In this document: piece by piece, positions 2,218 through 58,392 of the stretch | Layout of the letters: every line of letters begins with the position of its first letter | How positions within the stretch are numbered: the stretch's first letter is position 1 | The notes under the pieces: generated by a model | Database searches by the model: none | What the model was told of the DNA's origin: nothing | Seen by the model: the letters and a program-made list of their open reading frames with translations, nothing else | Source of the DNA: a virus | Taxonomy: Duplodnaviria > Heunggongvirae > Uroviricota > Caudoviricetes | DNA: 58,841 nt | Strand: one strand, 5' to 3' | Virus record (IMG/VR): IMGVR_UViG_3300023371_000069 | Program-made: the position numbers and the translations under genes

Positions 2218-2432
2218 TTATTGCTATTTTATGGGCAATCATGTCACTCCTGGTGATGATTCAATATGCACCAGCCTGTAAAGATTTAAATTGGAAAGAC
2301 CAATTAATCGTAGGCATTATCTTTATTATTGGCGGTCCAATATTCGCGGCCGCAAATGTACTTGAAGCAATTTTAGACTGTATTTTACCGGAAGGGTGGG
2401 GGGATGACGACGATGGTCCTTGGAAATATTAA
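2199..2432 (+). CDS. small membrane protein
   Basis: In-frame ATG with GGAAGGA upstream. It has two predicted transmembrane helices and an acidic C-terminus. Confidence 0.4.
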   Translation: METSGLIIAILWAIMSLLVMIQYAPACKDLNWKDQLIVGIIFIIGGPIFAAANVLEAILDCILPEGWGDDDDGPWKY

Positions 2433-3216
2433 AGAATATACTAAAGCACTGAAAGAACAATTTAAAGACCGCATTACCGCAATTGGTGATGCACCTAAGT
2501 TAGCAATTATCCAAGTTGGAAATGTAGAAGCATCAAATCGTTATATCAAAAACAAAGTGAAAGATTGTGAAGAGGTCGGTATCATTGCTGATGTTTATCA
2601 ATATCCAGAGGATATTACTGAACATGAGCTATGTGAAAATATCAAGCTCGACCAGGAACACTATGACGGCGTTATAGTGCAACTACCACTCCCACCTCAT
2701 ATCCGCGAGAAGGTCGTGGTTGCCGCAATCAATCCTTTGAAGGATGTTGATGGATTTCATCCAGATAGTCCTTATGACCCAGCAACTCCCGCAGGCATCA
2801 TGAAATATCTTCGTGCTTGCGATTACGACGTTGCGGGACGCGACGTCGTAATCATTGGTCGCAGTAATATTGTTGGTAAGCCTTTGGCGAGAATGATGAC
2901 AGACGCAGATGCGACAGTAACTCTTTGCCACAGTAAATCAAAATTGTCACATCATTTGTATGGGGCTGACCTGATTGTCACAGCAGTAGGTAAAGCAGGC
3001 TTTTTAAATTGCTACCCAATTCATGTGCCTGTTATTGACGTCGGCATTAACTTTGTAACAGATGCTGAAGGCAGAAGCCGACTTGTCGGCGATGCCTTCA
3101 ATACAGAAGGACGAGATGTAACACCAGTTCCAGGAGGGGTCGGTCTTTTGACCAGATGCGCACTTTTGGAGAATGTAATTGATGCGAAAGCAAGGGTGAG
3201 TTTAAAACGTGGATAA
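2404..3216 (+). CDS. folD: bifunctional 5,10-methylene-tetrahydrofolate dehydrogenase/cyclohydrolase
   Basis: 270 aa carrying FolD motifs: LAIIQVGN..AS..Y, DVDGFHP, TPAGIM, VIIGRSNIVGKP, VTAVGK, PVPGGVGLLT. Confidence 0.85.
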   Translation: MTTMVLGNIKEYTKALKEQFKDRITAIGDAPKLAIIQVGNVEASNRYIKNKVKDCEEVGIIADVYQYPEDITEHELCENIKLDQEHYDGVIVQLPLPPHIREKVVVAAINPLKDVDGFHPDSPYDPATPAGIMKYLRACDYDVAGRDVVIIGRSNIVGKPLARMMTDADATVTLCHSKSKLSHHLYGADLIVTAVGKAGFLNCYPIHVPVIDVGINFVTDAEGRSRLVGDAFNTEGRDVTPVPGGVGLLTRCALLENVIDAKARVSLKRG

Positions 3217-32588: not shown

Positions 32589-32628
32589 GGAGCCTTAGGG
32601 CTCCCCTCGTGGGAGATAAAAATCTTTC

Positions 32629-32657
32629 TTGATTTTTTATAAAAAATATGTTATAAT
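32629..32657 (+). promoter_or_regulatory. class 2 promoter cassette
   Basis: Cassette consensus, preceded by the GGAGCCTTAGGGCTCC hairpin. Confidence 0.6.
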
Positions 32658-32696
32658 ATATATGTAAGATAAAGAAAGAGATGAGAGGTAGCCGAT

Positions 32697-34412
32697 ATGA
32701 GTATATTTGAAAGGCTCCCGGACGAAGATAAGTCACAATTTAAGTCTTATATTTCTCACTACGGTGATGAAGGTAACGGAACTCTTCCGTTAGACAAAAT
32801 GGGATATTTCCTTCGTTTTTGGGACGAAAATAAAGAACCGTTCTTCCGGGCGTTCGGAGAGCAGTTTATCGTAAAAAAGGAAGTTCGTTTAGTTAAGCCA
32901 AAAGATGAACTGTCCAATGATATGTATTCCGCTTTAAACAACGGACACCAGATGATTCGTAACTTTATTTCTGCCTATAAGGATGCTGCTCGACATATCG
33001 GCAACGAGATGGGCGATATTGATATGACTTATCGCCTCAAGTCCTTTGTTGAAGATTGGGATATGTTGGTTGACAATATTTATCCCGGTCCTGGTTTCAC
33101 AATCCCTGGCAAGTTTACTAAGGATGGACGACCTCTTGTGGTTAATGCTAACTGCAAAGCTGTTAAAATGCTTGGTAAGATTGCGGCGGCTCTTAATGTA
33201 GAACTCCCCATCATGTACTGCAGCGGTTGTGGCTGCTACTACACTGATGGCGAAACAGAGTGCTGCGGGCCGTTAGAAAAGTCTTCTGGATATGAGCTGT
33301 TCCGACAGGCACATTCTCAAGTTCTAAACCAGAAGCAGATTAAAGGTAATCTTTGCCTGTCTATTCACCCGCTTGATTTTATCACTATGAGTGATAACAA
33401 CTGCGGCTGGACCTCTTGTATGAGCTGGATGGACGAACCTGGCGATTACAGACTGGGAACCATCGAAATGATGAACTCTCCTTGTGTCATCGTGGCATAT
33501 GTTGAGTCCAAGGAGCCTATGTGGACTCCCGGCGGTAACTGGAATAGTAAGCGTTGGCGTCAGCTTTACATCGTAACAAGAGAAGTCATTCTTGGAAATC
33601 GTCAGTATCCTTACATCAGCGATGATTTGCAGGGTGTAGCGATTAGATGGATTCGAGATTTGATGACTCAGATTCCGGGATATGGACCTTATCCCGAAGA
33701 AACTATTCAGCTGAAAAATGACAGCTGGAACACTGTCAAGGATAAACACATTCGTTTCAACTTCTACTGTAATTATATGTACAATGATGTCTATGATTAT
33801 CGTTTAGCATATGTGGCAGACCAGAAGATTGAAGATGATGACCATTATTCTTGCAACTTCTCTGGACCTGCAGTTTGCACTGGCTGCGGCGATATTATTG
33901 AGCTTGACGAGGTCGATGCTCATGTTGTACAGTGCAGAGCGTGTGACGGACACTGGCGTTGCGATTTCTGCGGCGACTGGCACAGCTCATATGATGAGTC
34001 CTATACAGTTGACGACGATTATATCGCCTGCGACTGGTGTTACCACAATGAACTGAGTGAATGTGAGGTTTGCGGCGACCATCATAGAAATGATTGCGTT
34101 GCACACATTTATCTTCAGTTTGCAGATACTGAAAACGAAGAAATTCGTGATGGATTTAATTACAACTTCTATGTATCTATCTGTGAAGATTGTTTGAACC
34201 ATCCGGAAGAGTATGAACCTCTATTCGGTCAGTTGTATGATGTTAGAGATAGCTGGGGTAATAGACGCCAAGCATTTGACATCCGCAATGTTACTGAGGA
34301 CGGCTTCAATGCCGGCAATTTGAGTCGACGCACCATCGAGTGGCTAAAGCAAATGCAAGCCACAAAGAGCGATGAAGAGCGTATTGACCTACTCGGGAAA
34401 ATCGTCTATTGA
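32697..34412 (+). CDS. large Cys-rich protein (multi-Zn-finger C-terminus), paralogue of 38033..39439
   Basis: 571 aa. The N-terminal half aligns with 38033..39439 (..IKGNLCLSIHPLDF..), and the C-terminus has many CxxC pairs. Confidence 0.5.
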   Translation: MSIFERLPDEDKSQFKSYISHYGDEGNGTLPLDKMGYFLRFWDENKEPFFRAFGEQFIVKKEVRLVKPKDELSNDMYSALNNGHQMIRNFISAYKDAARHIGNEMGDIDMTYRLKSFVEDWDMLVDNIYPGPGFTIPGKFTKDGRPLVVNANCKAVKMLGKIAAALNVELPIMYCSGCGCYYTDGETECCGPLEKSSGYELFRQAHSQVLNQKQIKGNLCLSIHPLDFITMSDNNCGWTSCMSWMDEPGDYRLGTIEMMNSPCVIVAYVESKEPMWTPGGNWNSKRWRQLYIVTREVILGNRQYPYISDDLQGVAIRWIRDLMTQIPGYGPYPEETIQLKNDSWNTVKDKHIRFNFYCNYMYNDVYDYRLAYVADQKIEDDDHYSCNFSGPAVCTGCGDIIELDEVDAHVVQCRACDGHWRCDFCGDWHSSYDESYTVDDDYIACDWCYHNELSECEVCGDHHRNDCVAHIYLQFADTENEEIRDGFNYNFYVSICEDCLNHPEEYEPLFGQLYDVRDSWGNRRQAFDIRNVTEDGFNAGNLSRRTIEWLKQMQATKSDEERIDLLGKIVY

Positions 34413-34437
34413 TTTTTTCAAAAAAATATGATATAAT
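34409..34437 (+). promoter_or_regulatory. class 2 promoter cassette
   Basis: Cassette consensus. Confidence 0.6.
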
Positions 34438-34505
34438 ATATATGTAAGGTAAAGAAAGAAAGCCTTACGAAATAAATAAATTTTTGAAAGGTATAGGTGC
34501 AAATT

Positions 34506-34910
34506 ATGGAAAAGATTACTAAGAGAGAGATGTTCGAGGCTATCAAGGAGACTTTCGAGACTGGTTCTTGCAAGTTCGATGCTGCCACTGTGATGGCATT
34601 CTGCGACAAGGAGATTGCTTCCTTGGATTCCAAGGCTGCTAAGGCTAAGGAGCGTGCCGCTGCTAAGAAGGCTGAGGCCGATGTTCTCATGGACCAGGTC
34701 CGTGACGCTTTGACTGGCGAGTTCCAGACTATCGCTGACATCGCCGCTGCTGTTGCTGAGGTCAACGCAGACGCTACTGTGTCTAAGGTTACTTACCGCT
34801 TGACTAAGCTGGTTGAGGCTGGTGACGCAGAGAAGACTGATGTCACTGTTCCTGGCGTTGATGGCGCCAAGGCTCGTAAGGTAAAGGCTTTCCGCGCAGT
34901 GGAAGCCTGA
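34506..34910 (+). CDS. Ala/Lys-rich acidic protein
   Basis: ATG at 34506, in frame within track ORF 34497..34910. Confidence 0.45.
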   Translation: MEKITKREMFEAIKETFETGSCKFDAATVMAFCDKEIASLDSKAAKAKERAAAKKAEADVLMDQVRDALTGEFQTIADIAAAVAEVNADATVSKVTYRLTKLVEAGDAEKTDVTVPGVDGAKARKVKAFRAVEA

Positions 34911-34982
34911 GCCTAACTCAGATAGCTTAATTCACGGGGGCGGGACTTCCGCCCCCATTCTTTTTGAGAGAGGAGGAGTATT

Positions 34983-36065
34983 ATGTTAAGCGAATTTATG
35001 TTAAAAGTGAGAGACTTGCACGAGGAAATCAGACAGGTAGCTGAACTTCTGAAACCTCAAGAGATGAAAGACCGTATGGCTTATCTCGAAGCTAAGTTCA
35101 ACCACTCAACCTGGAATGAAATTCCAGAAGAGGAGCTGAAGGAATACTCTCGCCTCAAAAAGAAATATGATTTATATTTCGGTATCTGGAATATGTATGA
35201 TGACCTTAAAACTTTAACTGAGTATGCAATAGAGGAAGGCGAAGTCAACTATTTGCATGAATTTGAGATGGATTATAATTACCTCGTCGAGGAAATCCAA
35301 AAGCTCAAGTTAGAGTTAATGTTCACAGGTAAGTACGATTCCTGCAACGCCATTTTAAATATTCATTCTGGTGCCGGTGGTAAAGAAGCACAAGACTGGA
35401 CCAGAATGTTACTTCAGATGTATGCGGCCTGGGCTAGTAATCATGATTTTCAATTCAATATTTTGGATTGGCAAGATGGTGAAGATAGCTCAGTCGTGAA
35501 AAGTGTTTCGGTAGAAATCAGAGGAGAGAATGTATACGGCTTGCTGAACGCTGAGAATGGCGTCCATCGTTTGGTTCGCGTTTCTCCCTTTGATTCTCAA
35601 AATAGACGCCATACTTCATTCGCAGCAGTCGAAGTAATGCCTGAAATCGAGGCAGATAACTCTGTGGAACTCGATATGAAAGATGTTAGAGTTGATACTT
35701 TCCGTTCAAGCGGAAAAGGCGGTCAGCACGTCAATAAGACTGAATCTGCGATTAGATTAACACATATTCCTACTGGCATTGTGGTGGGGTGCCAGCAAGA
35801 GCGAAGTCAACATCAGAACAAAGAAAAAGCCATGAAGATGCTTATCTCAAGGCTGGTTGCTATTAAAGAAAAAGAACACTATGACAACTTGTCTGAAATT
35901 CAGGGCGAGCAGAGTCGAATCGAATGGGGCAACCAAATTCGTTCTTATGTCTTTATGCCATATCAAATGGTTAAAGACCACAGGACTAACCACCAAACTT
36001 CTAATATTGACGCAGTGATGCGTGGAGATATAGATGAATTCATTTTCAAGAGTCTCGCTGAATAA
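34983..36065 (+). CDS. prfB: peptide chain release factor 2 homologue
   Basis: RF2 'anticodon' motif SPF (RVSPFDSQNRRHTSFA). GGQ catalytic motif (RSSGKGGQHVNKTESAIRLTHIPTGIV). About 360 aa. SD GAGGAGG. Confidence 0.85.
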   Translation: MLSEFMLKVRDLHEEIRQVAELLKPQEMKDRMAYLEAKFNHSTWNEIPEEELKEYSRLKKKYDLYFGIWNMYDDLKTLTEYAIEEGEVNYLHEFEMDYNYLVEEIQKLKLELMFTGKYDSCNAILNIHSGAGGKEAQDWTRMLLQMYAAWASNHDFQFNILDWQDGEDSSVVKSVSVEIRGENVYGLLNAENGVHRLVRVSPFDSQNRRHTSFAAVEVMPEIEADNSVELDMKDVRVDTFRSSGKGGQHVNKTESAIRLTHIPTGIVVGCQQERSQHQNKEKAMKMLISRLVAIKEKEHYDNLSEIQGEQSRIEWGNQIRSYVFMPYQMVKDHRTNHQTSNIDAVMRGDIDEFIFKSLAE

Positions 36066-36184
36066 GCGAGGCTCTTTTTTTGTTTTGAAACCAATGTTTC
36101 ATGAACCTGCTCCGGCCGGCATGGGGTGTGGGGACCGACAAGCCCAAAACGAAAAGGCCTCCAACTAATTTTTTGAGCGAATGG

Positions 36185-36213
36185 TTGATAAACATGAAAA
36201 AATTTTGTATAAT
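36185..36213 (+). promoter_or_regulatory. sigma70-like promoter
   Basis: TTGATAaacatgaaaaaatttTGTATAAT. Confidence 0.5.
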
Positions 36214-36234
36214 ATATTATAAAGGAGTGATTAT

Positions 36235-37056
36235 ATGCGTTTTTGTGTAAGTGGCAGACAGCCATATTCAGTTATTAAAATTGCTGACGAAATCAAGTTT
36301 GCATATGCTGATAAGGATAGAATTCTTGACCTCGTTGAAAAGTACCCTGAAAAGACAGTAATTCTTGATGTTCCCGGCCATGAAGGCGATTGGAAGCTAT
36401 GGGAAATGTATAGTGAGAAGTTTGCGGAATTCTATATCGCTCTTCATGATTTAAGTAGAGTTGCTGAATTTAATCAAGCTGGTATCAAATGGTATTGGCC
36501 TTATCCAATTACATCTTATTATGAGTTATCAATGATTGTTAATTTGCATCCAAGTTATCTGATGATTGGTCCTCCGCTAACATTTGATTTGGATAAGATT
36601 GTTCCCCATACATATGATGATAGTGTCGAGGAAAATGCAACACCAATTCCTTTGCGAATGGTGGTTAATGTTGCGCATCCTGCATATCTCCCAACCAATG
36701 GGACACACGGTATGTGCGGCCAGTGGGTGCGCCCGGAAGATGCTAACTTATATGCAACCCGCATCAACTGTTTTGAGTTTGATGAATGCGCTACCCTAAA
36801 GGAAGAAGAGGTTCTATTGAATACTTATAAGTCTGGCACATGGCCCGGTAACTTGAATCTAATTATTAAAAAGTTAGATTTCAACGTTGATAATCGCGCA
36901 ATTCCAGAAGAATTGGGAGAAAGACGAATGACTTGCGGCCAACGATGCTGGTCTGGCTCAGGATGTCATTTGTGTGTGAGCGCGTTTAGGTTTGCCGACC
37001 AGATTCGAAAAGAGCACCTTCGTCGCAACCAGAAGGACGATATTGACAATAATTAA
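36235..37056 (+). CDS. hypothetical protein
   Basis: Track ORF of 273 aa. Confidence 0.5.
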   Translation: MRFCVSGRQPYSVIKIADEIKFAYADKDRILDLVEKYPEKTVILDVPGHEGDWKLWEMYSEKFAEFYIALHDLSRVAEFNQAGIKWYWPYPITSYYELSMIVNLHPSYLMIGPPLTFDLDKIVPHTYDDSVEENATPIPLRMVVNVAHPAYLPTNGTHGMCGQWVRPEDANLYATRINCFEFDECATLKEEEVLLNTYKSGTWPGNLNLIIKKLDFNVDNRAIPEELGERRMTCGQRCWSGSGCHLCVSAFRFADQIRKEHLRRNQKDDIDNN

Positions 37057-37071
37057 AAAAAATGGTATAAT
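37043..37071 (+). promoter_or_regulatory. sigma70-like promoter
   Basis: TTGACAataattaaaaaaaaTGgTATAAT. Confidence 0.55.
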
Positions 37072-37100
37072 ATAATATAAGAGATAAAAGGAGGATACTT

Positions 37101-38084
37101 ATGCGAGTTCTAAGTGATAGTGATTACAAGCTATTTGAACGCTTAGTATCTTTGAGTCAAAAAGAATTAAAGAAGGCTATGGCTCAGTATCTAAAAGCAA
37201 AATATGATAAGGTAATCTTCACGAAAGATTATCTGGTTGCTGTTGGAGATATTCCGATTGCACTTGTTGCTCACTTAGACACTGTGTACAAGACTCCTGT
37301 ATCGAATTTATATTATGACCAAAGAAAAGGCGTGTTGTGGAGCCCAGATGGTTTGGGTGCCGATGACCGAGCAGGCGTATTTGCAATTTTGAAAATATTG
37401 CAAGATGGATATAGACCCTCGGTGATTTTTACAACCGATGAAGAGAAGGGTGGATTGGGTGCAAGTACTCTTGCGATGCGAGATTGTCCCATTCCAAACT
37501 TAAAATATATGATTGAACTTGACCGACGTGGTAGTAATGATTGCGTATTTTACGATTGTTATTGCCCTGAATTTGTTGATTATGTTGAATCATTCGGTTT
37601 CTGTGAGAAATATGGTTCATTCTCTGATATTAGTTTTTTAATGGGAGAATGGTTAGTTTGTGGTGTTAACTTGTCTGTTGGCTATGAGGAAGAACACTCA
37701 TATGCTGAACATCTATATGTTGGACCACTATTTGATACAATTAAGAAAGTTAAAAAGATGCTCGATGAAAAGGACATTCCTGACTTCGAGTATGATGAAT
37801 TGAATATTGCGGCTTCTGCTTGGTGGAAGACTAGCGATACTGTATATGGACAGCATTGTAGTAAATGCAAAAAGCTGTTCATGGAAGAAGAATTATTCCC
37901 AGTAAAGGGTCTTGACGGCAAAAAGAAATATTATTGCCCCGATTGTATTGTCGGAAATGTAAGTTGGTGCAATATCTGCCAAGAGGCATATGAAATCGCA
38001 GACCCTGCAGATGATAAAAAAATGTGTAAGGAGTGTGCGGAAGGCCTATGTACGAAGACATCAGAGAGCAGTTTAAATCAGTAA
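37101..38084 (+). CDS. M28/M20-family metallopeptidase-like protein with a C-terminal Zn-ribbon
   Basis: HLD.., GADDRAG and TTDEEKG motifs are typical of co-catalytic Zn exopeptidases. Confidence 0.45.
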   Translation: MRVLSDSDYKLFERLVSLSQKELKKAMAQYLKAKYDKVIFTKDYLVAVGDIPIALVAHLDTVYKTPVSNLYYDQRKGVLWSPDGLGADDRAGVFAILKILQDGYRPSVIFTTDEEKGGLGASTLAMRDCPIPNLKYMIELDRRGSNDCVFYDCYCPEFVDYVESFGFCEKYGSFSDISFLMGEWLVCGVNLSVGYEEEHSYAEHLYVGPLFDTIKKVKKMLDEKDIPDFEYDELNIAASAWWKTSDTVYGQHCSKCKKLFMEEELFPVKGLDGKKKYYCPDCIVGNVSWCNICQEAYEIADPADDKKMCKECAEGLCTKTSESSLNQ

Positions 38085-39439
38085 TTAGTTTTTCTCAAAA
38101 TATACCTGACCCCAATGTTGATTATCTTTTTAGAGAGTGGGAAGCTAATAAAGCGAAGTTTATTGAGCGATTTGGTGGACTCATCTATGAATGGTCTGAA
38201 CCGATTGAATTTACTTTGGATGAAAACCAGAAGCGAATGAGAGCAATGGAATTTGCGACTACTGTTTCTGATACTTTTAATAATCCTAACTTGGCTGAAT
38301 TTATAGATGAAAATTTGGATGGTTTCTTTGAAAATAAAGTCATTAAGACCTGCGGTGAGAAGGGTATTCCGACCGGAATGAAATTACTCAAAGCATTCAA
38401 GTATTTTGAGCCTAACAAGGCAGCTTTGAGAAGCATTCAAGATATGGCAAGTAATATTATCCAAGAGAATAAGATTAAGGGAACTTTATGTTTCTCTGTT
38501 CATCCTCTTGATTTTCTGTCCAGTAGTGAGAATACATATAACTGGCGTAGCTGTCATGCACTGGATGGAGAATACCGTGCAGGCAATCTGAGTTATATGG
38601 TTGATAAAACCACCTTTATGGTCTATTTGAAAGGCGCAGATAACCAAAAACTATTTGGGTTCGGTCCAGTAGAATGGAATTCTAAGAAGTGGCGTATGTT
38701 AATTCATGTTGCTGAGAATGATGATATTATGTTTGCTGGACGTCAGTATCCATTTAGTTCTAAAAGCGGTATTGATACCGTATTGAATATTTATAATAAT
38801 CTAATGATTGCAGAAAAGCCTTTTGGATATGGTACTTATAAATATGCAGGATGGCGAGCTGATTACGTAGACTCATATGTTCCATATGACGCAACTTCTA
38901 TGGATGTTACATATGATTTAGCAACTCGTTATTTGGTATATGATAATCAGCTGGTAGATATTAGAAGTATTGTAAAAGAAGGACACAATTGTCTGAATTA
39001 TAACGATATTTTGAAGTCTACTTGTTATAAATATCCTTATTATGCAATTTTCGACCCATATAGTTATCATTCTCTATCTCATCTGTTGGAAAATCCAGTA
39101 GTAGTTGGCGAAGAAGTGCCTTGCCTTCATTGCGGCGATGAGTTAATTAGTAATCCTGAGACTATGCGATGCGATGACTGTGAGCTGGAGTATGGTACTG
39201 AGGAGAATGATGTATATAGTTCTTGTGACTGTTGTGGTGCAAGAATTTATGTAGATGATGCAATTTGCGTTGGAGACGATGGAGATTTAATTTGTGATGC
39301 TTGCTTTCATGCACACGCTTTCGTCTGTGATTGCTGCGGCGGTGTCTACTATGAAGCAGACAAAGTCTTCATCCCCGAAAAAAATGACGAAGAAAATGGC
39401 CGGTGGTATTGCCGCGGCTGCTATGAAGATATGGATTAA
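38033..39439 (+). CDS. large Cys-rich protein, paralogue of 32697..34412
   Basis: 468 aa with a shared N-terminal domain and a C-terminal CxxC cluster. Confidence 0.5.
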   Translation: MCGRPMYEDIREQFKSVISFSQNIPDPNVDYLFREWEANKAKFIERFGGLIYEWSEPIEFTLDENQKRMRAMEFATTVSDTFNNPNLAEFIDENLDGFFENKVIKTCGEKGIPTGMKLLKAFKYFEPNKAALRSIQDMASNIIQENKIKGTLCFSVHPLDFLSSSENTYNWRSCHALDGEYRAGNLSYMVDKTTFMVYLKGADNQKLFGFGPVEWNSKKWRMLIHVAENDDIMFAGRQYPFSSKSGIDTVLNIYNNLMIAEKPFGYGTYKYAGWRADYVDSYVPYDATSMDVTYDLATRYLVYDNQLVDIRSIVKEGHNCLNYNDILKSTCYKYPYYAIFDPYSYHSLSHLLENPVVVGEEVPCLHCGDELISNPETMRCDDCELEYGTEENDVYSSCDCCGARIYVDDAICVGDDGDLICDACFHAHAFVCDCCGGVYYEADKVFIPEKNDEENGRWYCRGCYEDMD

Positions 39440-39515
39440 AAGATAAAAATTTCTGGGTAAAATTTTTCAATCTTCTTATCTTAAAAATTATATATAATAG
39501 AAAGAGGTGAGAAAA

Positions 39516-40244
39516 ATGCCTAAAAGCGAAAATTTAGTTGGGCAAGTATTTCATAGATTAACAGTTATTTCCAAAGATGCTGAAGCATCTAAAAAGCATG
39601 GACGTTCTTATTGGCTATGTTAGTGTGAATGTGGAAAATAGAAAGTAATCGCAGGATTGAGTCTAAAAAATGGAGCTACAAAAAGTTGTGGTTGCTTACG
39701 CAATGAACGAGTATTTGAAGCTATTGCAAAAGATGAAGTTGGTAATCATTATGGAAAATTAACTGTTTTATCTATGGATAAAGAACGAGATAGTTTTGGA
39801 CGTATTAAATGGATATGCCAATGTGAATGTGGTAATATAAAATCTATTAGTGGGTCAGATTTGCGAAGTGGTAATACTCAAAGTTGTGGATGTATTTCTC
39901 GAATTTCTCGTGGAGAGCAAAAAATTATTGATATTTTAGAGCAATTTAATATATCATACATTAGAGAATATAAACCAATAAATTTGGGTAATAAAAGATT
40001 TGACTTTGCTATTTTAAATGATAATAATGAAGTAATTCGTTTAATTGAATTCGATGGAGAGCAACATTATAAAGAAAGTAATTGGGAACGAGAAAAGTTA
40101 AGTCGTACCCAAGAATCTGATAAAATTAAAAATCATTATGCTTTAAGTCTATCTATTCCTTTAGTAAGAATTCCATATTGGGAATTAGAAAACTTAAATT
40201 ATAATATGCTATTTTCACAACATTATGAAATAAAAGGAGAATAA
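39516..40244 (+). CDS. putative homing endonuclease (CxC-repeat N-domain plus DUF559/Vsr-like IEFDGEQHY..RIPY C-domain) with 2 in-frame TAG near 39622 and 39640
   Basis: ATG has AGAGGTGAG upstream. The frame continues through ..WLC[TAG]CECGK[TAG]KVIAG.. into track ORF 39657..40244. It is a paralogue of 4355..5118. Start coordinate is +/-1. Confidence 0.5.
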
Positions 40245-41745: not shown

Positions 41746-42039
41746 GAAAAAATCCCGTCTTGAAAAAGTACCAAGAGGCTGATAAGAAATGGGTTAGCTG
41801 CCAAAGTATTTGATGTGAGGTGCCGGTCTGAGTAGCCGTATTGCCGGATAATAGAGCTACAGCGTTTGAGATGGTCAGCAGCCACCCTTTGTCGTTTGCT
41901 ACAAGAACGAAAGATGATTGGCTCGCCCCTAAGGATTATGGACTTAACAGGTGGGTTAAGGCGGATGGTAAAGTCCAATGCTAGTGTGGGTTTGATAGTT
42001 TCCCTCTCTGCGGAGGAAAAACTAATCAAAAAATCTTTC

Positions 42040-42068
42040 TTGATTTTTTACAAAAAATATGTTATAAT
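42040..42068 (+). promoter_or_regulatory. class 2 promoter cassette
   Basis: Cassette consensus. Confidence 0.6.
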
Positions 42069-42100
42069 ATATATGTAAGATAAAGAAAGAAATTAAATAT

Positions 42101-43760: not shown

Positions 43761-43930
43761 TTGACTTTATATGAGTCTGAGGCTAGGGTCGGCTTGACAA
43801 CAAATGACTCACAGGTAGCGGCGAACTGGACAATCTAGCCGTGGGCTTCAGTGCATGGTCCCTATTATGCTCCGGCACCTTGGATGCTGAGAAGTGGTTG
43901 CTAGCGCCATTCCAAATCAAAAAATCTTTC

Positions 43931-43959
43931 TTGATTTTTTACAAAAAATATGTTATAAT
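43931..43959 (+). promoter_or_regulatory. class 2 promoter cassette
   Basis: Cassette consensus. Confidence 0.6.
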
Positions 43960-43993
43960 ATATATGTAAGATAAAGAAAGAGAGGTAATTCAA

Positions 43994-45279: not shown

Positions 45280-45811
45280 TGCCCGAGTAGCTCAGTTGGT
45301 TTAGAGCGCCGCCCTCATATCGAGCAATACCATATTTGTAAAAAGTAATGGATACAAATATTAAAGGAACAATTACAGAATTAAAGTGTAAAACTTACTT
45401 TTTAGAATTAGGTTATATGGTTTCTACACCAGAAAGCCCAGTTCGATATGACTTCATTTTAGATACTGGTAAAGAGTTGCTGAAAATTCAAGTCAAAACC
45501 AGTCATACCGATGGAGAAAAAATTATCTTCAAAACGAGTTCAACTCATATTACCGCAAAAGGAAATACAGTGCATCACTATAAAGATGATGGTATAGATT
45601 ATTTTTGCACTTGGTTTGATAATGAATGTTATTTGGTACCTGTGCAAGATTGCGGAAAAAGTGAAAAATATTTACGATTGATTCCCACTAAAAATGGGCA
45701 AGTCAAAAATATTGCTTTTGCGAAAGACTATGTTGCAAAGGAGGTCTTAGCAAATAAGTGAGCTTGATATGAAGGCGGAGGTCGTGGGTTCGATTCCCAC
45801 CTTTGGTACCA
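45280..45811 (+). tRNA. tRNA-Met(CAU)-like gene interrupted in the anticodon loop by a 454-nt insertion encoding a nuclease
   Basis: 5' part GCCCGAG TA GCTC..GAGC G CCGCC CTCAT (45280-45317). 3' part AA GGCGG AGGTC GTGGG TTCGATT CCCAC CTTTGGT A CCA (45772-45811). The anticodon stem matches across the break, but the acceptor pairing is imperfect. Confidence 0.4.
45348..45761 (+). CDS. Hjc-like PD-(D/E)xK nuclease, putative homing endonuclease (copy 1)
   Basis: Paralogue of 53105..53512 and 56023..56430. Sits inside the split tRNA gene. Confidence 0.5.
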   Translation: MDTNIKGTITELKCKTYFLELGYMVSTPESPVRYDFILDTGKELLKIQVKTSHTDGEKIIFKTSSTHITAKGNTVHHYKDDGIDYFCTWFDNECYLVPVQDCGKSEKYLRLIPTKNGQVKNIAFAKDYVAKEVLANK

Positions 45812-51353: not shown

Positions 51354-51361
51354 TCTTTATT

Positions 51362-51437
51362 GGGGATTAGAATAAAGGCAGTTCCGCGGGCTTTGACCCC
51401 GTGTGTGTAGTGGTTCGAATCCACTATCCCCAGCCAG
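51362..51437 (+). tRNA. tRNA-Gln(UUG)
   Basis: Acceptor TGGGGAT/ATCCCCA (U1:A72), disc G, loop CTTTGAC, encoded CCA. Confidence 0.7.
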
Positions 51438-51505: not shown

Positions 51506-51581
51506 TGGGGATTGGCGCAATTGGTAGCGCGGCAGACTCTGACTCTGATGGTTAAAGGTTCGAATCCTTTATCCCCAGCCA
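51506..51581 (+). tRNA. tRNA-Gln(CUG)
   Basis: Same acceptor as Gln(UUG). Loop CTCTGAC. Encoded CCA. Confidence 0.65.
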
Positions 51582-51793: not shown

Positions 51794-52630
51794 ATATATG
51801 TAAGGTTATGAGAAGAGTACACTTCCCTTTCGAGGATATATGATGATTCCAAGTGCGCCGGGTTCGTGGCTTAAGCCGATAAGTGAGAAAGATAAGGCGG
51901 CCGGTAAGAGGGTCTGTTGAAGGACTGTTTCTTTGACACTTGTTTCTCCTAAAATCTTAACCTTTTTAAGCAACCGATAACTGATAACCCTCCGCTGAAT
52001 AAGCCTGGTGGTTGCGATTTCGACTAATATCAGTTTGAACCTTGAAAAGTTTGCATCTCGGTGAAGAGCGAATCCCATCGTGCCGAGAACCCAATCCTGC
52101 CTGCGGGCGCCAGGAGTCCGAAATAATTTTGTCGACGATAGCCGGCAATAGGTAGAGGGCTTGCGTTGTGAAGCGTGAGTTCCGCCTCAGAACTGAGGTC
52201 CTGGATGGAGGGGTGTGCAATCATAACCGCATCTAAAAACACTGTCTCGTCGCTTCCGCAATAGACGCCCCTGTGGGGAATAAGCCATGTTAGGGTTTAG
52301 CTGGTGACTGTACCAAACCATGGTAGACCAATAAGGAAGTTTGCGTTGATGACCGGGTGACCGGCCTATAAGACGAGGTTGTGGTACGAGTAGCCCAATC
52401 GCAAAGAACATTAATGCTTGATGATTTAGTTGGTTATTATCAAATATTTCTGAATGGCGGGTGAAAGTTGCAGGCAATCATTCCTGCATGGGACTTGGTC
52501 GAAAGACTGGGGCCGGAAGTTAGGGGTCGCTCCCCGAAGCTCAGACCGTGTCTCCCCATTGGTTGAATATAGGTGAAGGTTAAACAGAGTGTATGGCGAA
52601 GGTCAGCAAACTTTTCAAGATTCTAAATAT

Positions 52631-52769
52631 GAGCCGTTGGCGGAATTGGTAGACGCACCGGACCGGAATGAAATAGTGTCTTGGTCTAAAACGCTAACAG
52701 CAAGTAAAATCGGACTTAAAATCCGGCGCCTTAGTTGGCATCTTGGTTCAAGTCCAAGGCGGCTCACCA
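52631..52769 (+). tRNA. tRNA-Leu(UAA), type II, carrying a roughly 54-nt insertion between the D-arm and anticodon arm
   Basis: Acceptor GAGCCGT/GCGGCTC, anticodon arm TCGGA/CTTAAAA/TCCGG, T-arm CTTGG/TTCAAGT/CCAAG, encoded CCA. The insertion (about 52658-52712) is flanked by a CCGGA/TCGGA direct repeat and contains AACAGCAAG. Confidence 0.4.
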
Positions 52770-53104: not shown

Positions 53105-53512
53105 ATGTTATTTGAAACAAATCGTGATAAAGGTCGCGCAGGCATGGCGATGGCAATCGCCTATTTTGGAGCCAATGGATATACAATTAATGTCCCTCTA
53201 AACGATACTCAATGGTATGATTTAGTCATTGAAAAAGATGGCGTATTTAAAACAGTTCAATGTAAAGCAACTGGTAGTGCTGATAATAGTGTTTCAATTA
53301 AAAGCACTGGTGGTACAAAAGGTAGTGTGTATGATACTATATTAAACCACCCTGTTGATTATTTATTCTGTTTAGATGGGGAAATGCATATGTATGTCAT
53401 TCCAGTTCAAGATTTGCGAGATTATGGAGTGAGTAAACAAATTACTCTCCGCACTCAAAAATCTGCCAATGGACAAGGTTTTCAAACTTATCAATATATG
53501 GTGTCTATTTAA
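53105..53512 (+). CDS. Hjc-like PD-(D/E)xK nuclease, putative homing endonuclease (copy 2)
   Basis: KGRAG..AYF..GY.INVPLNDTQWYDLVIEKDGVFKTVQCK matches the Holliday-junction-resolvase-like fold. Confidence 0.5.
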   Translation: MLFETNRDKGRAGMAMAIAYFGANGYTINVPLNDTQWYDLVIEKDGVFKTVQCKATGSADNSVSIKSTGGTKGSVYDTILNHPVDYLFCLDGEMHMYVIPVQDLRDYGVSKQITLRTQKSANGQGFQTYQYMVSI

Positions 53513-55563: not shown

Positions 55564-55744
55564 ACGCCGTAAGCCGCGTCCTCAGCCACCTTGGTACTAT
55601 TGGTATGACACAGATGGTTGTTGGGATTGTCCAAATCGAAATGGTTGTTCTGGATGTAAAAGATTAAAAACCTATATTTATGAGCAACAACGGACTAAAA
55701 GAAAAATCGCCCGAGACGAGAAGCGATTCCTTGACAATTCATAA
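55550..55744 (+). CDS. small basic Cys-rich protein
   Basis: ATG is in an overlapping frame. MNRAKRRKPRP.. and CWDCPNRNGCSGC. Confidence 0.4.
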   Translation: MNRAKRRKPRPQPPWYYWYDTDGCWDCPNRNGCSGCKRLKTYIYEQQRTKRKIARDEKRFLDNS

Positions 55745-55759
55745 AATTTTTGCTATAAT
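55731..55759 (+). promoter_or_regulatory. sigma70-like promoter followed by the CAGCAAA motif
   Basis: TTGACAattcataaaattttTGcTATAAT. Confidence 0.55.
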
Positions 55760-56022: not shown

Positions 56023-56430
56023 ATGTATTAGTCAATTTAGGGAAATTTAGGTTTTGGTAAAGCCGTTGAATATTTTACCAGTCATGGTATCACAGTTGCG
56101 ATTCCGCTTAATGATACTCAAAAATATGATTTAATTGCTGATTTTAATGGTGGCTTGTAGAGAGTTCAAGTTAAAACCAGTCGATATAGTAGAAATGGTA
56201 TTTCCTATGAAGTAATGTTAAAAAACTGTGGGGGTACCAGTAAAGGCTCTAAAATTCGACCATTTGATAACACTTCTTGTGATTATGTATTTATTGTAAC
56301 AGGGAATGATAAAACTTATTTAATTCCTTGTGAAGCAATTTCTGCTACTAATACAATCACAGTTGGGAATAAATATACTGAATTTGAAGTATTTAGCTTA
56401 CCCTTATCTGAATTCCAGGCTGAAGAATGA
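56023..56430 (+). CDS. Hjc-like PD-(D/E)xK nuclease, putative homing endonuclease (copy 3), with 3 in-frame TAG (56029-56031, 56038-56040, 56158-56160)
   Basis: ATG has AAGGAGAATAAGT upstream. The frame runs to TGA at 56428-56430. It aligns with copies 1 and 2 across the TAG positions. The track shows only its stop-free tail, 56215..56430. Confidence 0.5.
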
Positions 56431-56433
56431 TAT

Positions 56434-56508
56434 TGGGGTGTCGTTCAAAGGTTAGGACCGCGGTCTCTAAAATCGCAGATGTCAGTTCGATTCTGACCGC
56501 CCCCGCCA
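56434..56508 (+). tRNA. amber suppressor tRNA-Sup(CUA), type I, Gln-like
   Basis: Acceptor TGGGGTG/CGCCCCC (weak 1:72 pair), disc G, D-arm GTTC/AAAGGTTA/GGAC, anticodon arm GCGGT/CTCTAAA/ATCGC, T-arm GTCAG/TTCGATT/CTGAC, encoded CCA. Same architecture as the Gln tRNAs at 51362 and 51506. Confidence 0.7.
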
Positions 56509-56605
56509 TGGGGTGTATTCTAATGGTAAGAAAAGAGTCTCTAAAACTCCAGGAAGCACGGCTCTGACCCGTGATGTGGGGGTTCGAATCCCTCCACCCC
56601 AGCCA
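56509..56605 (+). tRNA. second tRNA-Sup(CUA), type II (long variable arm, G73, Ser-like)
   Basis: Acceptor TGGGGTG/CACCCCA, anticodon arm (A)GAGT/CTCTAAA/ACTC(C), 27-nt variable arm with a CACGG/CTCTGAC/CCGTG hairpin, T-arm GGGGG/TTCGAAT/CCCTC, encoded CCA. Abuts the previous tRNA with no spacer. Confidence 0.55.
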
Positions 56606-56617
56606 AGTATCGAAAAT

Positions 56618-56645
56618 TGATTTTTATAAAAATTTTTGATATAAT
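56618..56645 (+). promoter_or_regulatory. class 2 promoter cassette
   Basis: Cassette consensus. Confidence 0.6.
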
Positions 56646-56785: not shown

Positions 56786-56872
56786 CCCGGTGTGGTGGAA
56801 TTGGCAGACACAAGGGACTTAAAATCCCTCGGTGGTGACACCGTACCGGTTCGAGTCCGGTCACCGGGACCA
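56786..56872 (+). tRNA. tRNA-Leu(UAA), type II, intact copy
   Basis: Acceptor CCCGGTG/CACCGGG, anticodon arm AGGGA/CTTAAAA/TCCCT, disc A, encoded CCA. Confidence 0.7.
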
Positions 56873-57979: not shown

Positions 57980-58392
57980 GGGTCAAGTGTGAGAAAGTTC
58001 ATTGGCATCGCTGACGGTAAATGGCAATCTATGTGAAAGGGCCTAAGTAGCATAGTGCGCAAGCATCTCGTAGTTCAGTCGTTGGAGAATCTTAAAGAGC
58101 AACGGATTTCTTGGTTAGGCCAATCAAGAAAGAGGAATTCTGTCGTTAAGTTCCTAATAAAGAAAGCGACACAGCGGGGGTACTATGTGCGAAGAATAGT
58201 ACGCCCCGCATCCCATCTAAACCGGTCTTGCCTTGTGCACTGGGAGAAATTCCTCAAGACCGCCTCATACTGAGGGTACGATTAAGGTTTTACAGTAGGG
58301 ACTAAGTGGCAATCGTGTAACAGGAAATCTGACACGACCTAAGCCCTAAAATTAGCCTTAATCATTGTTTTTTCTAATCCAAAAATCTTTTT

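Follow-up and report, generated by a model that had tools for sequence, protein, structure and literature searches.

How does a phage that reads UAG as an amino acid obtain a charged amber suppressor tRNA from a host enzyme that itself reads the anticodon? TAG-to-Gln recoding in phages is well documented, and the charging of a CUA tRNA by an anticodon-reading host enzyme is the gap addressed here. An excerpt of the Borges et al. preprint calls the charging of phage suppressors an open question and gives TAG-to-Gln and TGA-to-Trp as the only reassignments reported in phages on standard-code hosts. The locus in question lies in a 58,841-nt stretch of phage DNA (IMG/VR record IMGVR_UViG_3300023371_000069), the whole of which is called the window, and consists of two adjacent tRNA genes with anticodon CUA, supA and supB. 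The chief interest is the architecture of supB and its family, in which a second hairpin bears the anticodon loop of tRNA-Gln. Judged from sequence, both tRNAs are probably Gln-inserting, with the extra arm of supB giving the Gln-charging enzyme its anticodon identity element.

tRNA genes were called with ARAGORN over the window, Rfam model RF00005 was scanned, and minimum-free-energy folds were calculated. ARAGORN found 39 tRNA genes between 40706 and 58671, every one on the + strand, of which two have the anticodon CUA. The elements on which the argument turns are these:

56434-56508, + strand: supA, a 75-nt type-I amber suppressor tRNA (ARAGORN, Rfam, fold)
56509-56605, + strand: supB, a 97-nt five-arm amber suppressor tRNA (ARAGORN, Rfam, fold, subfamily alignment A3)
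56557-56573, + strand: variable-arm hairpin of supB, stem CACGG/CCGUG, 7-nt loop CUCUGAC at 56562-56568, CUG at 56564-56566
51361-51436, + strand: the phage's own tRNA-Gln(UUG) (ARAGORN), acceptor UGGGGAU, anticodon loop CUUUGAC
51506-51581, + strand: the phage's own tRNA-Gln(CUG) (ARAGORN), acceptor UGGGGAU, anticodon loop CUCUGAC

The pair of adjacent CUA tRNAs at 56434-56605 had been proposed in a first-pass annotation made from the letters alone, and it stands. ARAGORN assigns CUA to both (56467-56469 in supA, tRNA position 34 of the call; 56541-56543 in supB, position 33), RF00005 scores 47.1 bits for supA (E 1.9e-07) and 54.2 bits for supB (E 2e-09) against a gathering score of 29, and the minimum-free-energy fold of each is a cloverleaf, with a fifth arm in supB. 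Both genes encode CCA and share the 7-nt canonical anticodon loop CUCUAAA; in supB position 27:43 is an A·C mismatch, which leaves four standard pairs in the anticodon stem against an expected 5 bp. supB begins right after the CCA of supA (spacer 0). The pair is base-for-base identical in five independent metagenome assemblies (L007-L011; comparison loci are denoted by L numbers). A terminator-like hairpin at 56501-56513 (CCCCGCCATGGGG) is formed by the end of supA (3' acceptor strand with CCA) and the 5' acceptor strand with which supB begins; it arises because the abutting genes share the UGGGG acceptor.

The 27-nt variable region of supB is composed of the linker AGGAAG, the stem strand CACGG, the loop CUCUGAC, the stem strand CCGUG and the linker AUGU. 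The loop matches exactly the anticodon loop of the phage tRNA-Gln(CUG), and it is the sole location of the CUG triplet in supB. In the supB orthologue of the relative L329 the arm loop is CUUUGAC, which is the tRNA-Gln(UUG) loop, so that CUG is switched to UUG. Without its CUA arm and the linker of that arm, supB is a perfect 74-nt tRNA-Gln(CUG). The subfamily alignment A3 (6 sequences) supports all five helices, with 98% of cells paired and compensatory changes in 15 of 26 pairs. Its variable-arm helix is 100% paired and four of its five pairs covary; the acceptor and T helices, in a 7/5 arrangement, covary as well.

The same design recurs widely. Two pattern scans of IMG/VR were run, both with the variable arm left unconstrained: one required a UGGGG 5' end, the other the loop CTCTAAA and a T loop with 28-48 free bases between them. 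The resulting family of long CUA tRNAs comprises at least 44 distinct tRNA(CUA) sequences of at least 84 nt, supB included, and the counts given for it are among the matches listed. A hairpin at the variable position is present in 44/44, and its loop is composed as follows:

Arm-loop position 32: C or U in 40
Arm-loop position 33: U in 35
Arm-loop position 34: C in 40, U in 4
Arm-loop position 35: U in 44
Arm-loop position 36: G in 44
Arm-loop position 37: A in 42

This motif, Y-U-(C/U)UG-A, is the anticodon loop of tRNA-Gln, CUG or UUG. The stems below it are of unrelated sequence and 2-6 bp long (2-3 bp in most members), with long flanking linkers. Their covariation score is 0.60 against 0.18 in shuffles, a value reached by 0 of 500 shuffles, and the two inner pairs are formed in 37/37 sequences with 10-11 double changes each. 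As a control, YUG was found in the loop of 2 of 81 variable arms of Ser, Leu and Tyr tRNAs from the same loci. The acceptor ends of the family differ in sequence but conform to the Gln type: pair 1:72 is weak or mismatched in 43/44, position 2 is G in 44/44, and at position 73 there are 29 G and 13 A. No Ser-like member with G1:C72 occurs among the 44 listed.

Loci with long CUA tRNAs gain +0.19 in open reading frame (ORF) coverage on TAG read-through compared with +0.09 for TGA, and control loci gain +0.075 and +0.087, respectively; the measure is crude, and for L040 it gave a nonsensical negative value. Contigs of metagenome-assembled genomes (MAGs) assigned to Acutalibacteraceae, Oscillospiraceae, Faecalibacterium and Erysipelotrichaceae also carry family members, which hints weakly at hosts among the Bacillota. 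A tRNA of length between the short and long forms is found at 551-630 of L332 (NC_055890.1, crAss-like phage cr56_1): the RefSeq 'tRNA-Gln' there has the anticodon CUA, is 80 nt long and contains an unpaired variable region of 11 nt (UAUGAUUUGUG); a homing endonuclease gene comes after it.

Which amino acid the two acceptor ends indicate can be read by comparison with the E. coli GlnRS set. The supA acceptor, UGGGGUG/CGCCCCC, has a U1·C72 mismatch, G2:C71, G3:C70 and G73, and supA also has G10:C25 and a 4-nt variable loop; the Gln-like character ascribed to the 75-nt tRNA at first pass is therefore borne out. supB has the same 5' strand UGGGGUG, with U1:A72, G2:C71, G3:C70 and G73. Both tRNAs contain the acceptor part of the set (weak or open 1:72, G2:C71, G3:C70, G73). 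The U1·C72 mismatch is kept in the supA orthologue of L327, and the short CUA forms of three unrelated IMG/VR phages (L067, L104, L112) have an open 1:72 pair and G73, as supA does.

For the second tRNA the first-pass annotation had favoured Ser. Its 97 nt, long arm and G73 were confirmed, the Ser type was not. The 5-bp stem of the long variable arm, G73 and G2:C71 would suit such a tRNA, and SerRS makes no use of the anticodon. However, the acceptor of supB is Gln-like and its D arm is type-I (4-bp stem, 7-nt loop), unlike the phage's own three tRNA-Ser genes, which start with GGAG or GGAAG and have G1:C72 and class II D arms. The arm of supB, with its 7-nt loop CUCUGAC and single-stranded linkers of 6 and 4 nt, is also unlike Ser arms. 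Set against GlnRS and SerRS identity elements, both tRNAs thus have the Gln acceptor set and supB is not Ser-like; the decoding anticodon CUA, with A at 36, lacks the U35/G36 combination of the E. coli GlnRS set.

Three class assignments were rejected. A bacterial tRNA-Ser would show G1:C72, a 3-bp D stem with a large D loop, and a long arm that is attached tightly and closed by a small loop. In its acceptor, its D arm and the design of its long arm supB is unlike the three Ser tRNAs of the phage, and TAG is not Ser. tRNA-Sec or allo-tRNA does not fit supB, whose geometry is 7/5 and not 8/5, 8/4 or 9/3. The tRNA-Pyl label given by ARAGORN is set by the anticodon alone: supA has a variable region of 4 nt and supB one of 27 nt, where tRNA-Pyl would have 3 nt, and both D loops are normal with GG, where a small D loop is expected alongside a 6-bp anticodon stem and a pylS/pylBCD context. 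No Pyl genes were detected in a Pfam scan of the ten largest ORFs, the window as a whole not having been scanned for them.

The genes of the phage give independent counts for the amino acid inserted at TAG. Those concerned are:

34983-36065, + strand: release factor 2 (RF2, prfB), TIGR00020 445.5 bits (cut-off 370)
39516-40244, + strand: 242-aa gene with in-frame TAGs at 39621-39623 and 39639-39641
535-1587, - strand: 350-aa late-region gene with four in-frame TAGs, adjoining the terminase module that continues upstream of the window in L012
1-522, - strand: YonG_N-like late gene, C-terminal part, whose two in-frame TAGs each face a Gln codon in L013 and L014
56023-56430, + strand: PD-(D/E)XK (PF11645) endonuclease-like gene, 135 aa, ending 3 nt before supA

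The RF2 ORF contains RVSPFDS (SPF motif) and SGKGGQ (GGQ motif) and is full-length and continuous, without a frameshift site; RF2 acts on UAA and UGA, not UAG. The endonuclease-like gene has in-frame TAGs at 56029-56031, 56038-56040 and 56158-56160, and the window and L104 read MY*S[IL]*GN (asterisks stand for TAG) where the L067 orthologue reads MYQSLQGN, so that two of the three TAGs correspond to Q. In the 242-aa gene an internal repeat aligns WLC*CECGK*K with WICQCECGNIK. In-frame TAGs are also present in the terminase module of L012.

For a quantitative comparison the recoded loci L012 and L013 (43 TAGs in the late genes of L013) were aligned with L014 and L015, the references, which have five TAGs per locus in late-gene ORFs of at least 180 codons. 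CAA or CAG in L014 or L015 stands opposite 74 of 112 TAG positions (66%), which matches the 60% at which Gln codons are themselves conserved in these alignments. Over the 112 positions the substitution profile has a log-likelihood of -170 under Gln, -361 under Lys and -395 under Ser, and Ser is outside the six commonest residues opposite TAG. Ser codons do stand opposite TAG in a few cases, such as TCT at one terminase position. One terminase TAG sits in SGGKE-Q-AAG, a site with Q in 34/34 homologues read and a sense codon in both L014 and L015. Conserved genes therefore contain in-frame TAG where standard-code relatives have Gln, as is required of code 15, and TAG is read as Gln (code 15) in the late genes, the profile giving no indication of a Ser share.

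TAG is rarely or never a true stop. Among 73 ORFs that score well by whole-ORF codon score, TAA ends 51, TGA 16 and TAG 6; of the six that end in TAG, two or more are pieces of recoded genes. TAG codons are concentrated in late and structural genes; the RF2 gene and seven other large Pfam-tested ORFs lack them. A comparison of ORF lengths between codes over the window did not discriminate, because the window holds mostly early genes and tRNAs. The CUA pair, RF2 (445.5 bits) and TAGs in real genes form the self-encoded TAG-recoding system that had been proposed. The TAGs in conserved genes of this genome are indirect evidence that the suppressors are expressed and charged and that UAG is read through.

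The position of the suppressors was compared in five relatives found through the AAA/nSTAND3 protein of the array. The slot lies between tRNA-Ser (UGA; AGA in L330) and tRNA-Leu(UAA), its conserved neighbour, and its contents are variable:

56786-56872, + strand: tRNA-Leu(UAA) (ARAGORN), the same neighbour as in L067, L104, L112, L327, L329 and L330
Window: short and long CUA forms in tandem
L327 (AAA protein 89% identical to that of the window): short form alone
L329 (83%): supB orthologue alone, loop CUUUGAC
L330 (80%): a long form, from a different subfamily
L326 (91%): locus without a CUA tRNA
L328 (86%): locus without a CUA tRNA

Short and long CUA forms also adjoin tRNA-Leu(UAA) in the unrelated phages L067, L104 and L112. 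In this arrangement and in the interchangeable slot contents, the two forms act like equivalent Gln suppressors which move as a module. The variable slot may be a record of stepwise gain or loss of recoding. In two of the three unrelated phages (L067, L104) a PD-(D/E)XK homologue, about 52% identical, sits between the short and long tRNAs, which suggests a mobile endonuclease-tRNA module. The window itself contains three paralogous PD-(D/E)XK (PF11645) genes inside the tRNA array (45348-45761, 53105-53512, 56023-56430), followed by tRNA-Met (about 130 nt from the 45348-45761 gene), tRNA-Tyr and supA (10 nt or less for these two), respectively; TAG codons occur in one of the three, the gene before the suppressors.

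The view that the two suppressors differ in amino acid does not survive these results: TAG corresponds to Gln at 74 of 112 positions, both tRNAs have Gln-type ends, and short and long forms replace each other in the same slot. With a high degree of confidence, supA and supB would both insert Gln at UAG.

Hairpins of the same kind occur in long phage tRNAs with two other anticodons. A scan of the kind used for CUA gave 21 distinct long UCA tRNAs. In 12 of them the variable-arm loop is (G/C)UCCAA(A/C/G), the Trp anticodon loop, and these mostly have A1:U72 and G73, as bacterial tRNA-Trp does (loci L263, L195, L212, L261, L303, L249, L257, L268, L285, L280, L221 and L235). About five of the 21 are classical selC-like tRNAs, distinct from the Trp-loop ones. 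For tRNA-Ile(UAU) the sample was the genes that happened to lie in fetched loci, 16 distinct sequences. Seven of these are long (89-95 nt, in phage tRNA arrays), and all seven have a 7-nt arm loop centred on GAU (C-A-GAU-U-A or U-A-GAU-G-A), A73 and covarying stems. The long tRNA-Ile(UAU) genes are located as follows:

L119: 6110-6201
L120: 1804-1892
L130: 5346-5437
L144: 902-993
L147: 929-1020
L159: 3352-3443
L171: 3669-3763

Cognate arm loops thus occur in long tRNAs with CUA, UCA and UAU anticodons alike, and where they do, the arm triplet always matches the amino acid indicated by the acceptor end. For CUA (Gln) and UCA (Trp) the arm triplets also agree with the reported phage reassignments.

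The mechanism that these data point to would begin with transcription from a promoter-like site upstream of the endonuclease-like gene. Two such sites bracket the suppressors:

55731-55759, + strand: promoter-like site TTGACA, 17 nt, TG-TATAAT, with 12/12 consensus matches, upstream of the PD-(D/E)XK gene and the suppressors
56617-56645: next promoter-like site, a consensus match, preceding tRNA-Leu(UAA)

Transcription from the first site would run through the TAG-containing endonuclease gene, supA and supB, probably together, and the RNase P cut at the 5' end of supB would also free the CCA end of supA. The CUA anticodons of both would read UAG; by established knowledge, the phage RF2 would keep termination at UAA and UGA efficient and would not compete at UAG. 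supA is an ordinary tRNA-Gln derivative of the supE kind in which the 1:72 pair is open. supB bears CUA on its canonical arm and the copy of the tRNA-Gln anticodon loop, C-U-CUG-A-C, on its second hairpin, and this second arm would offer the host Gln-charging enzyme the U35/G36 identity element that is absent from the CUA anticodon. Either GlnRS or a non-discriminating GluRS, the latter with GatCAB acting after it, would play this part, and the outcome would be efficient Gln charging of the suppressor. The CUG arm may take the anticodon position during charging by alternative stacking, which is possible for supB and less plausible in members with an arm stem of 2-3 bp.

On balance, recognition by a synthetase is the function favoured for the supB extra arm. 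An excerpt of PMC9976931 describes GlnRS, TrpRS and IleRS as strongly anticodon-dependent. It also cites an amber tRNA-Ser with a long arm that became Gln-accepting on changing pairs 1-72 and 3-70; a long arm is therefore no bar to Gln charging. Belief and doubt are evenly matched for the wider proposal that phages generally keep a cognate anticodon stem-loop as an extra arm to get tRNAs with unusual anticodons charged by host synthetases: CUG/UUG for CUA (Gln), CCA for UCA (Trp) and GAU for UAU (Ile).

Several points weigh against a role of the arm in Gln charging, or against Gln as the sole amino acid. The variable arm of an L-shaped tRNA is away from the anticodon-binding site of GlnRS, and many arm stems in the family are merely 2-3 bp; docking in the anticodon pocket therefore needs an unusual geometry or alternative stacking of the two arms. 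supB and its nearest relatives have an invariant U10:A25, where E. coli GlnRS uses G10; most other long family members have G10. The charging route would be GlnRS or GluRS/GatCAB, depending on the host. The family sample of at least 44 sequences was drawn from scans with a fixed anticodon loop CTCTAAA and T loop. Finally, by the substitution counts alone, a small share of Ser at TAG may be compatible with the data.

Conservation of the loop motif does not in itself indicate the protein that reads it, and the geometric objection to GlnRS binding leaves room for a partner other than a synthetase: a modification enzyme, an amidotransferase, a phage factor, or an anticodon nuclease for which the hairpin would be a decoy. 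Such a partner is unlikely, since the arm triplet always fits the amino acid implied by the acceptor and by the reassignment (Gln for CUA, Trp for UCA, Ile for UAU), the three synthetases concerned depend on the anticodon, and a nuclease decoy would need no such match.

The likeness of the two supB arm loops, CUCUAAA and CUCUGAC, and the perfect tRNA-Gln(CUG) left on deletion of the CUA arm would also be expected if the anticodon arm of a tRNA-Gln(CUG) had been duplicated and one copy mutated, with the hairpin a relic that has no identity role and at most stabilises the fold. Across the 44 listed sequences the stems have wholly diverged in sequence and length, yet U35, G36 and A37 of the loop stay fixed, and position 34 varies between C and U alone, both of which give Gln anticodons. 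Cognate triplets moreover occur independently in UCA (CCA) and UAU (GAU) tRNAs, and a relic is therefore very unlikely.

There is only a slender chance that supB is a two-state tRNA, in which either arm stacks as the anticodon arm and which, charged in the CUG-arm state, could decode CAG as well as UAG as Gln. In the CUG arm of supB a 5-bp stem closes a 7-nt loop, the 4-nt linker after the arm resembles a normal variable loop, and throughout the family the arm lies between long linkers, but most family arm stems, at 2-3 bp, are too short to pass for a normal anticodon stem; this possibility overlaps with charging through the arm rather than excluding it. Next to no chance is left to the reading in which supA inserts Gln and supB is a class II Ser-type tRNA charged by SerRS through its long arm, with TAG ambiguous between Gln and Ser, given the acceptor, D arm and arm of supB, the substitution profile and the conversion of an amber tRNA-Ser to Gln identity by two pair changes.

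The cognate-anticodon hairpin sets supB apart from known systems. Code-15 phages (Lak, Agate, crAss-like, phAss-1) likewise have in-frame TAG in late genes, a tRNA(CUA), sometimes RF2, and TAG as Gln, but the present phage belongs to an SPbeta-like clade without a GenBank relative, and the available parts of published code-15 accounts contain no description of the long-suppressor architecture. Two or three CUA tRNA genes per phage are known in phAss-1 and its relatives (PMC10607447, in excerpt); the phAss-1 region 90000-135976 has a short CUA tRNA and no long one. supA is of the same kind as E. coli supE tRNA-Gln(CUA) (type-I, acceptor UGGGG, G73, G10, CUA), except that supE has U1:A72 and supA has U1·C72, conserved in relatives; supB adds a whole extra arm.

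In class II tRNAs (Ser, Leu, bacterial Tyr), allo-tRNA, tRNA-Sec and nematode nev-tRNA the arm and not the anticodon sets identity, according to excerpts of PMC5389517 and PMC3333845. supB shares with them the long extra arm between anticodon arm and T arm, but its acceptor/T arrangement is 7/5 rather than 8/4 or 9/3, and its D arm is type-I. It differs further from class II tRNAs and long-arm suppressors in the fixed sequence of its 7-nt loop, which is the cognate anticodon loop, in its long linkers, and in its amino acid, Gln and not Ser or Leu. A cognate anticodon triplet is shown to a synthetase by mRNA-leader hairpins, as in the E. coli thrS operator and yeast synthetase mRNAs (PMC9976931, in excerpt). 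These mimics are regulatory mRNA elements, whereas the supB mimic is part of a tRNA that decodes, and its use would be in charging. In open-access literature and preprints no mention of a variable arm with a cognate-anticodon hairpin was found, and an earlier account elsewhere is possible. A code-15 system with a suppressor tRNA and RF2, and several CUA tRNA genes per genome, are already known; new here, as far as the open-access literature goes, is the five-arm suppressor with its cognate-anticodon hairpin.

The SPbeta-type structural domains and the terminase relatives indicate that the phage, which comes from gut or rumen samples, is SPbeta-like and large, at about 190 kb. L012, fetched by an exact match to the FolD protein, carries a 350-aa gene identical to the one at 535-1587 of the window and, just upstream of the window on the minus strand, the large terminase and further late genes. 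FolD (methylene-tetrahydrofolate dehydrogenase/cyclohydrolase; window 2404-3216) adjoins the late-gene module and is conserved in L014 and L015. The terminase has 7433 homologues at E <=1e-10; the best 120 of these are 80-99% identical, and their longest contigs are 160-200 kb. Neighbouring genes of the relatives encode YonG, YonD, YonB, YomX, YomW, YomV and YomU domains. Over 30 metagenome data blocks contain exact sequences of RF2 and a neighbouring 100-aa protein, the contigs reaching 0.2-1 Mb.

Searches of GenBank phages with the tRNA pair or 20 kb of the window as query gave nothing or short tRNA matches, with no close relative, and for two other long-CUA family members only T-arm and acceptor segments matched. 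In IMG/VR, an exact 16-mer of the supA/supB junction had two chance matches without tRNAs, and a search by RF2 returned no relative. L005 (6532-13010) is 95.5% identical to window 32914-39442 and diverges from 39442: where the window has the tRNA array, L005 carries genes for proteins of 433, 454 and 498 aa, and no tRNA occurs anywhere in its 13 kb.

Other features of the tRNA array were also noted. A full-length ROOL RNA (Rfam RF03087, 312.6 bits) lies at 52033-52624, between the tRNA-Gln genes and tRNA-Tyr. Directly after it, at 52631-52766, is a 136-nt tRNA-like gene (Rfam tRNA 33.3 bits; no ARAGORN call), a class II tRNA resembling Leu(UAA) in which about 50 nt are inserted between D arm and anticodon arm; the inserted stretch, which includes GGUCUAAAAC, opens by repeating the 5' half of the anticodon stem. 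A partial match to OLE RNA (RF01071, 53.5 bits, gathering 50, model 439-592 only) was found at 58280-58363, between two tRNA-Lys genes. A repeat of about 64-67 bp, 98-100% identical, is present in three intergenic copies (32618-32681, 42024-42090, 43915-43981), one before a 571-aa gene and two in the tRNA array.

For annotation, the long CUA and UCA tRNAs of phages should not be labelled Ser, Sec or Pyl. If the proposed role of the hairpin is true, the decoding anticodon and the identity anticodon are physically separate within one natural tRNA, and decoding would be uncoupled from identity; an identity anticodon on a separate arm would answer the charging question. It would also explain why phage recoding is confined to TAG-to-Gln and TGA-to-Trp. 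Orthogonal tRNA design would gain a natural template in such a tRNA, which is of practical interest for expanding the genetic code. As Trp (UCA) and Ile (UAU) tRNAs share the design, viruses may follow it as a general rule when they extend or rewrite the genetic code in standard-code hosts.

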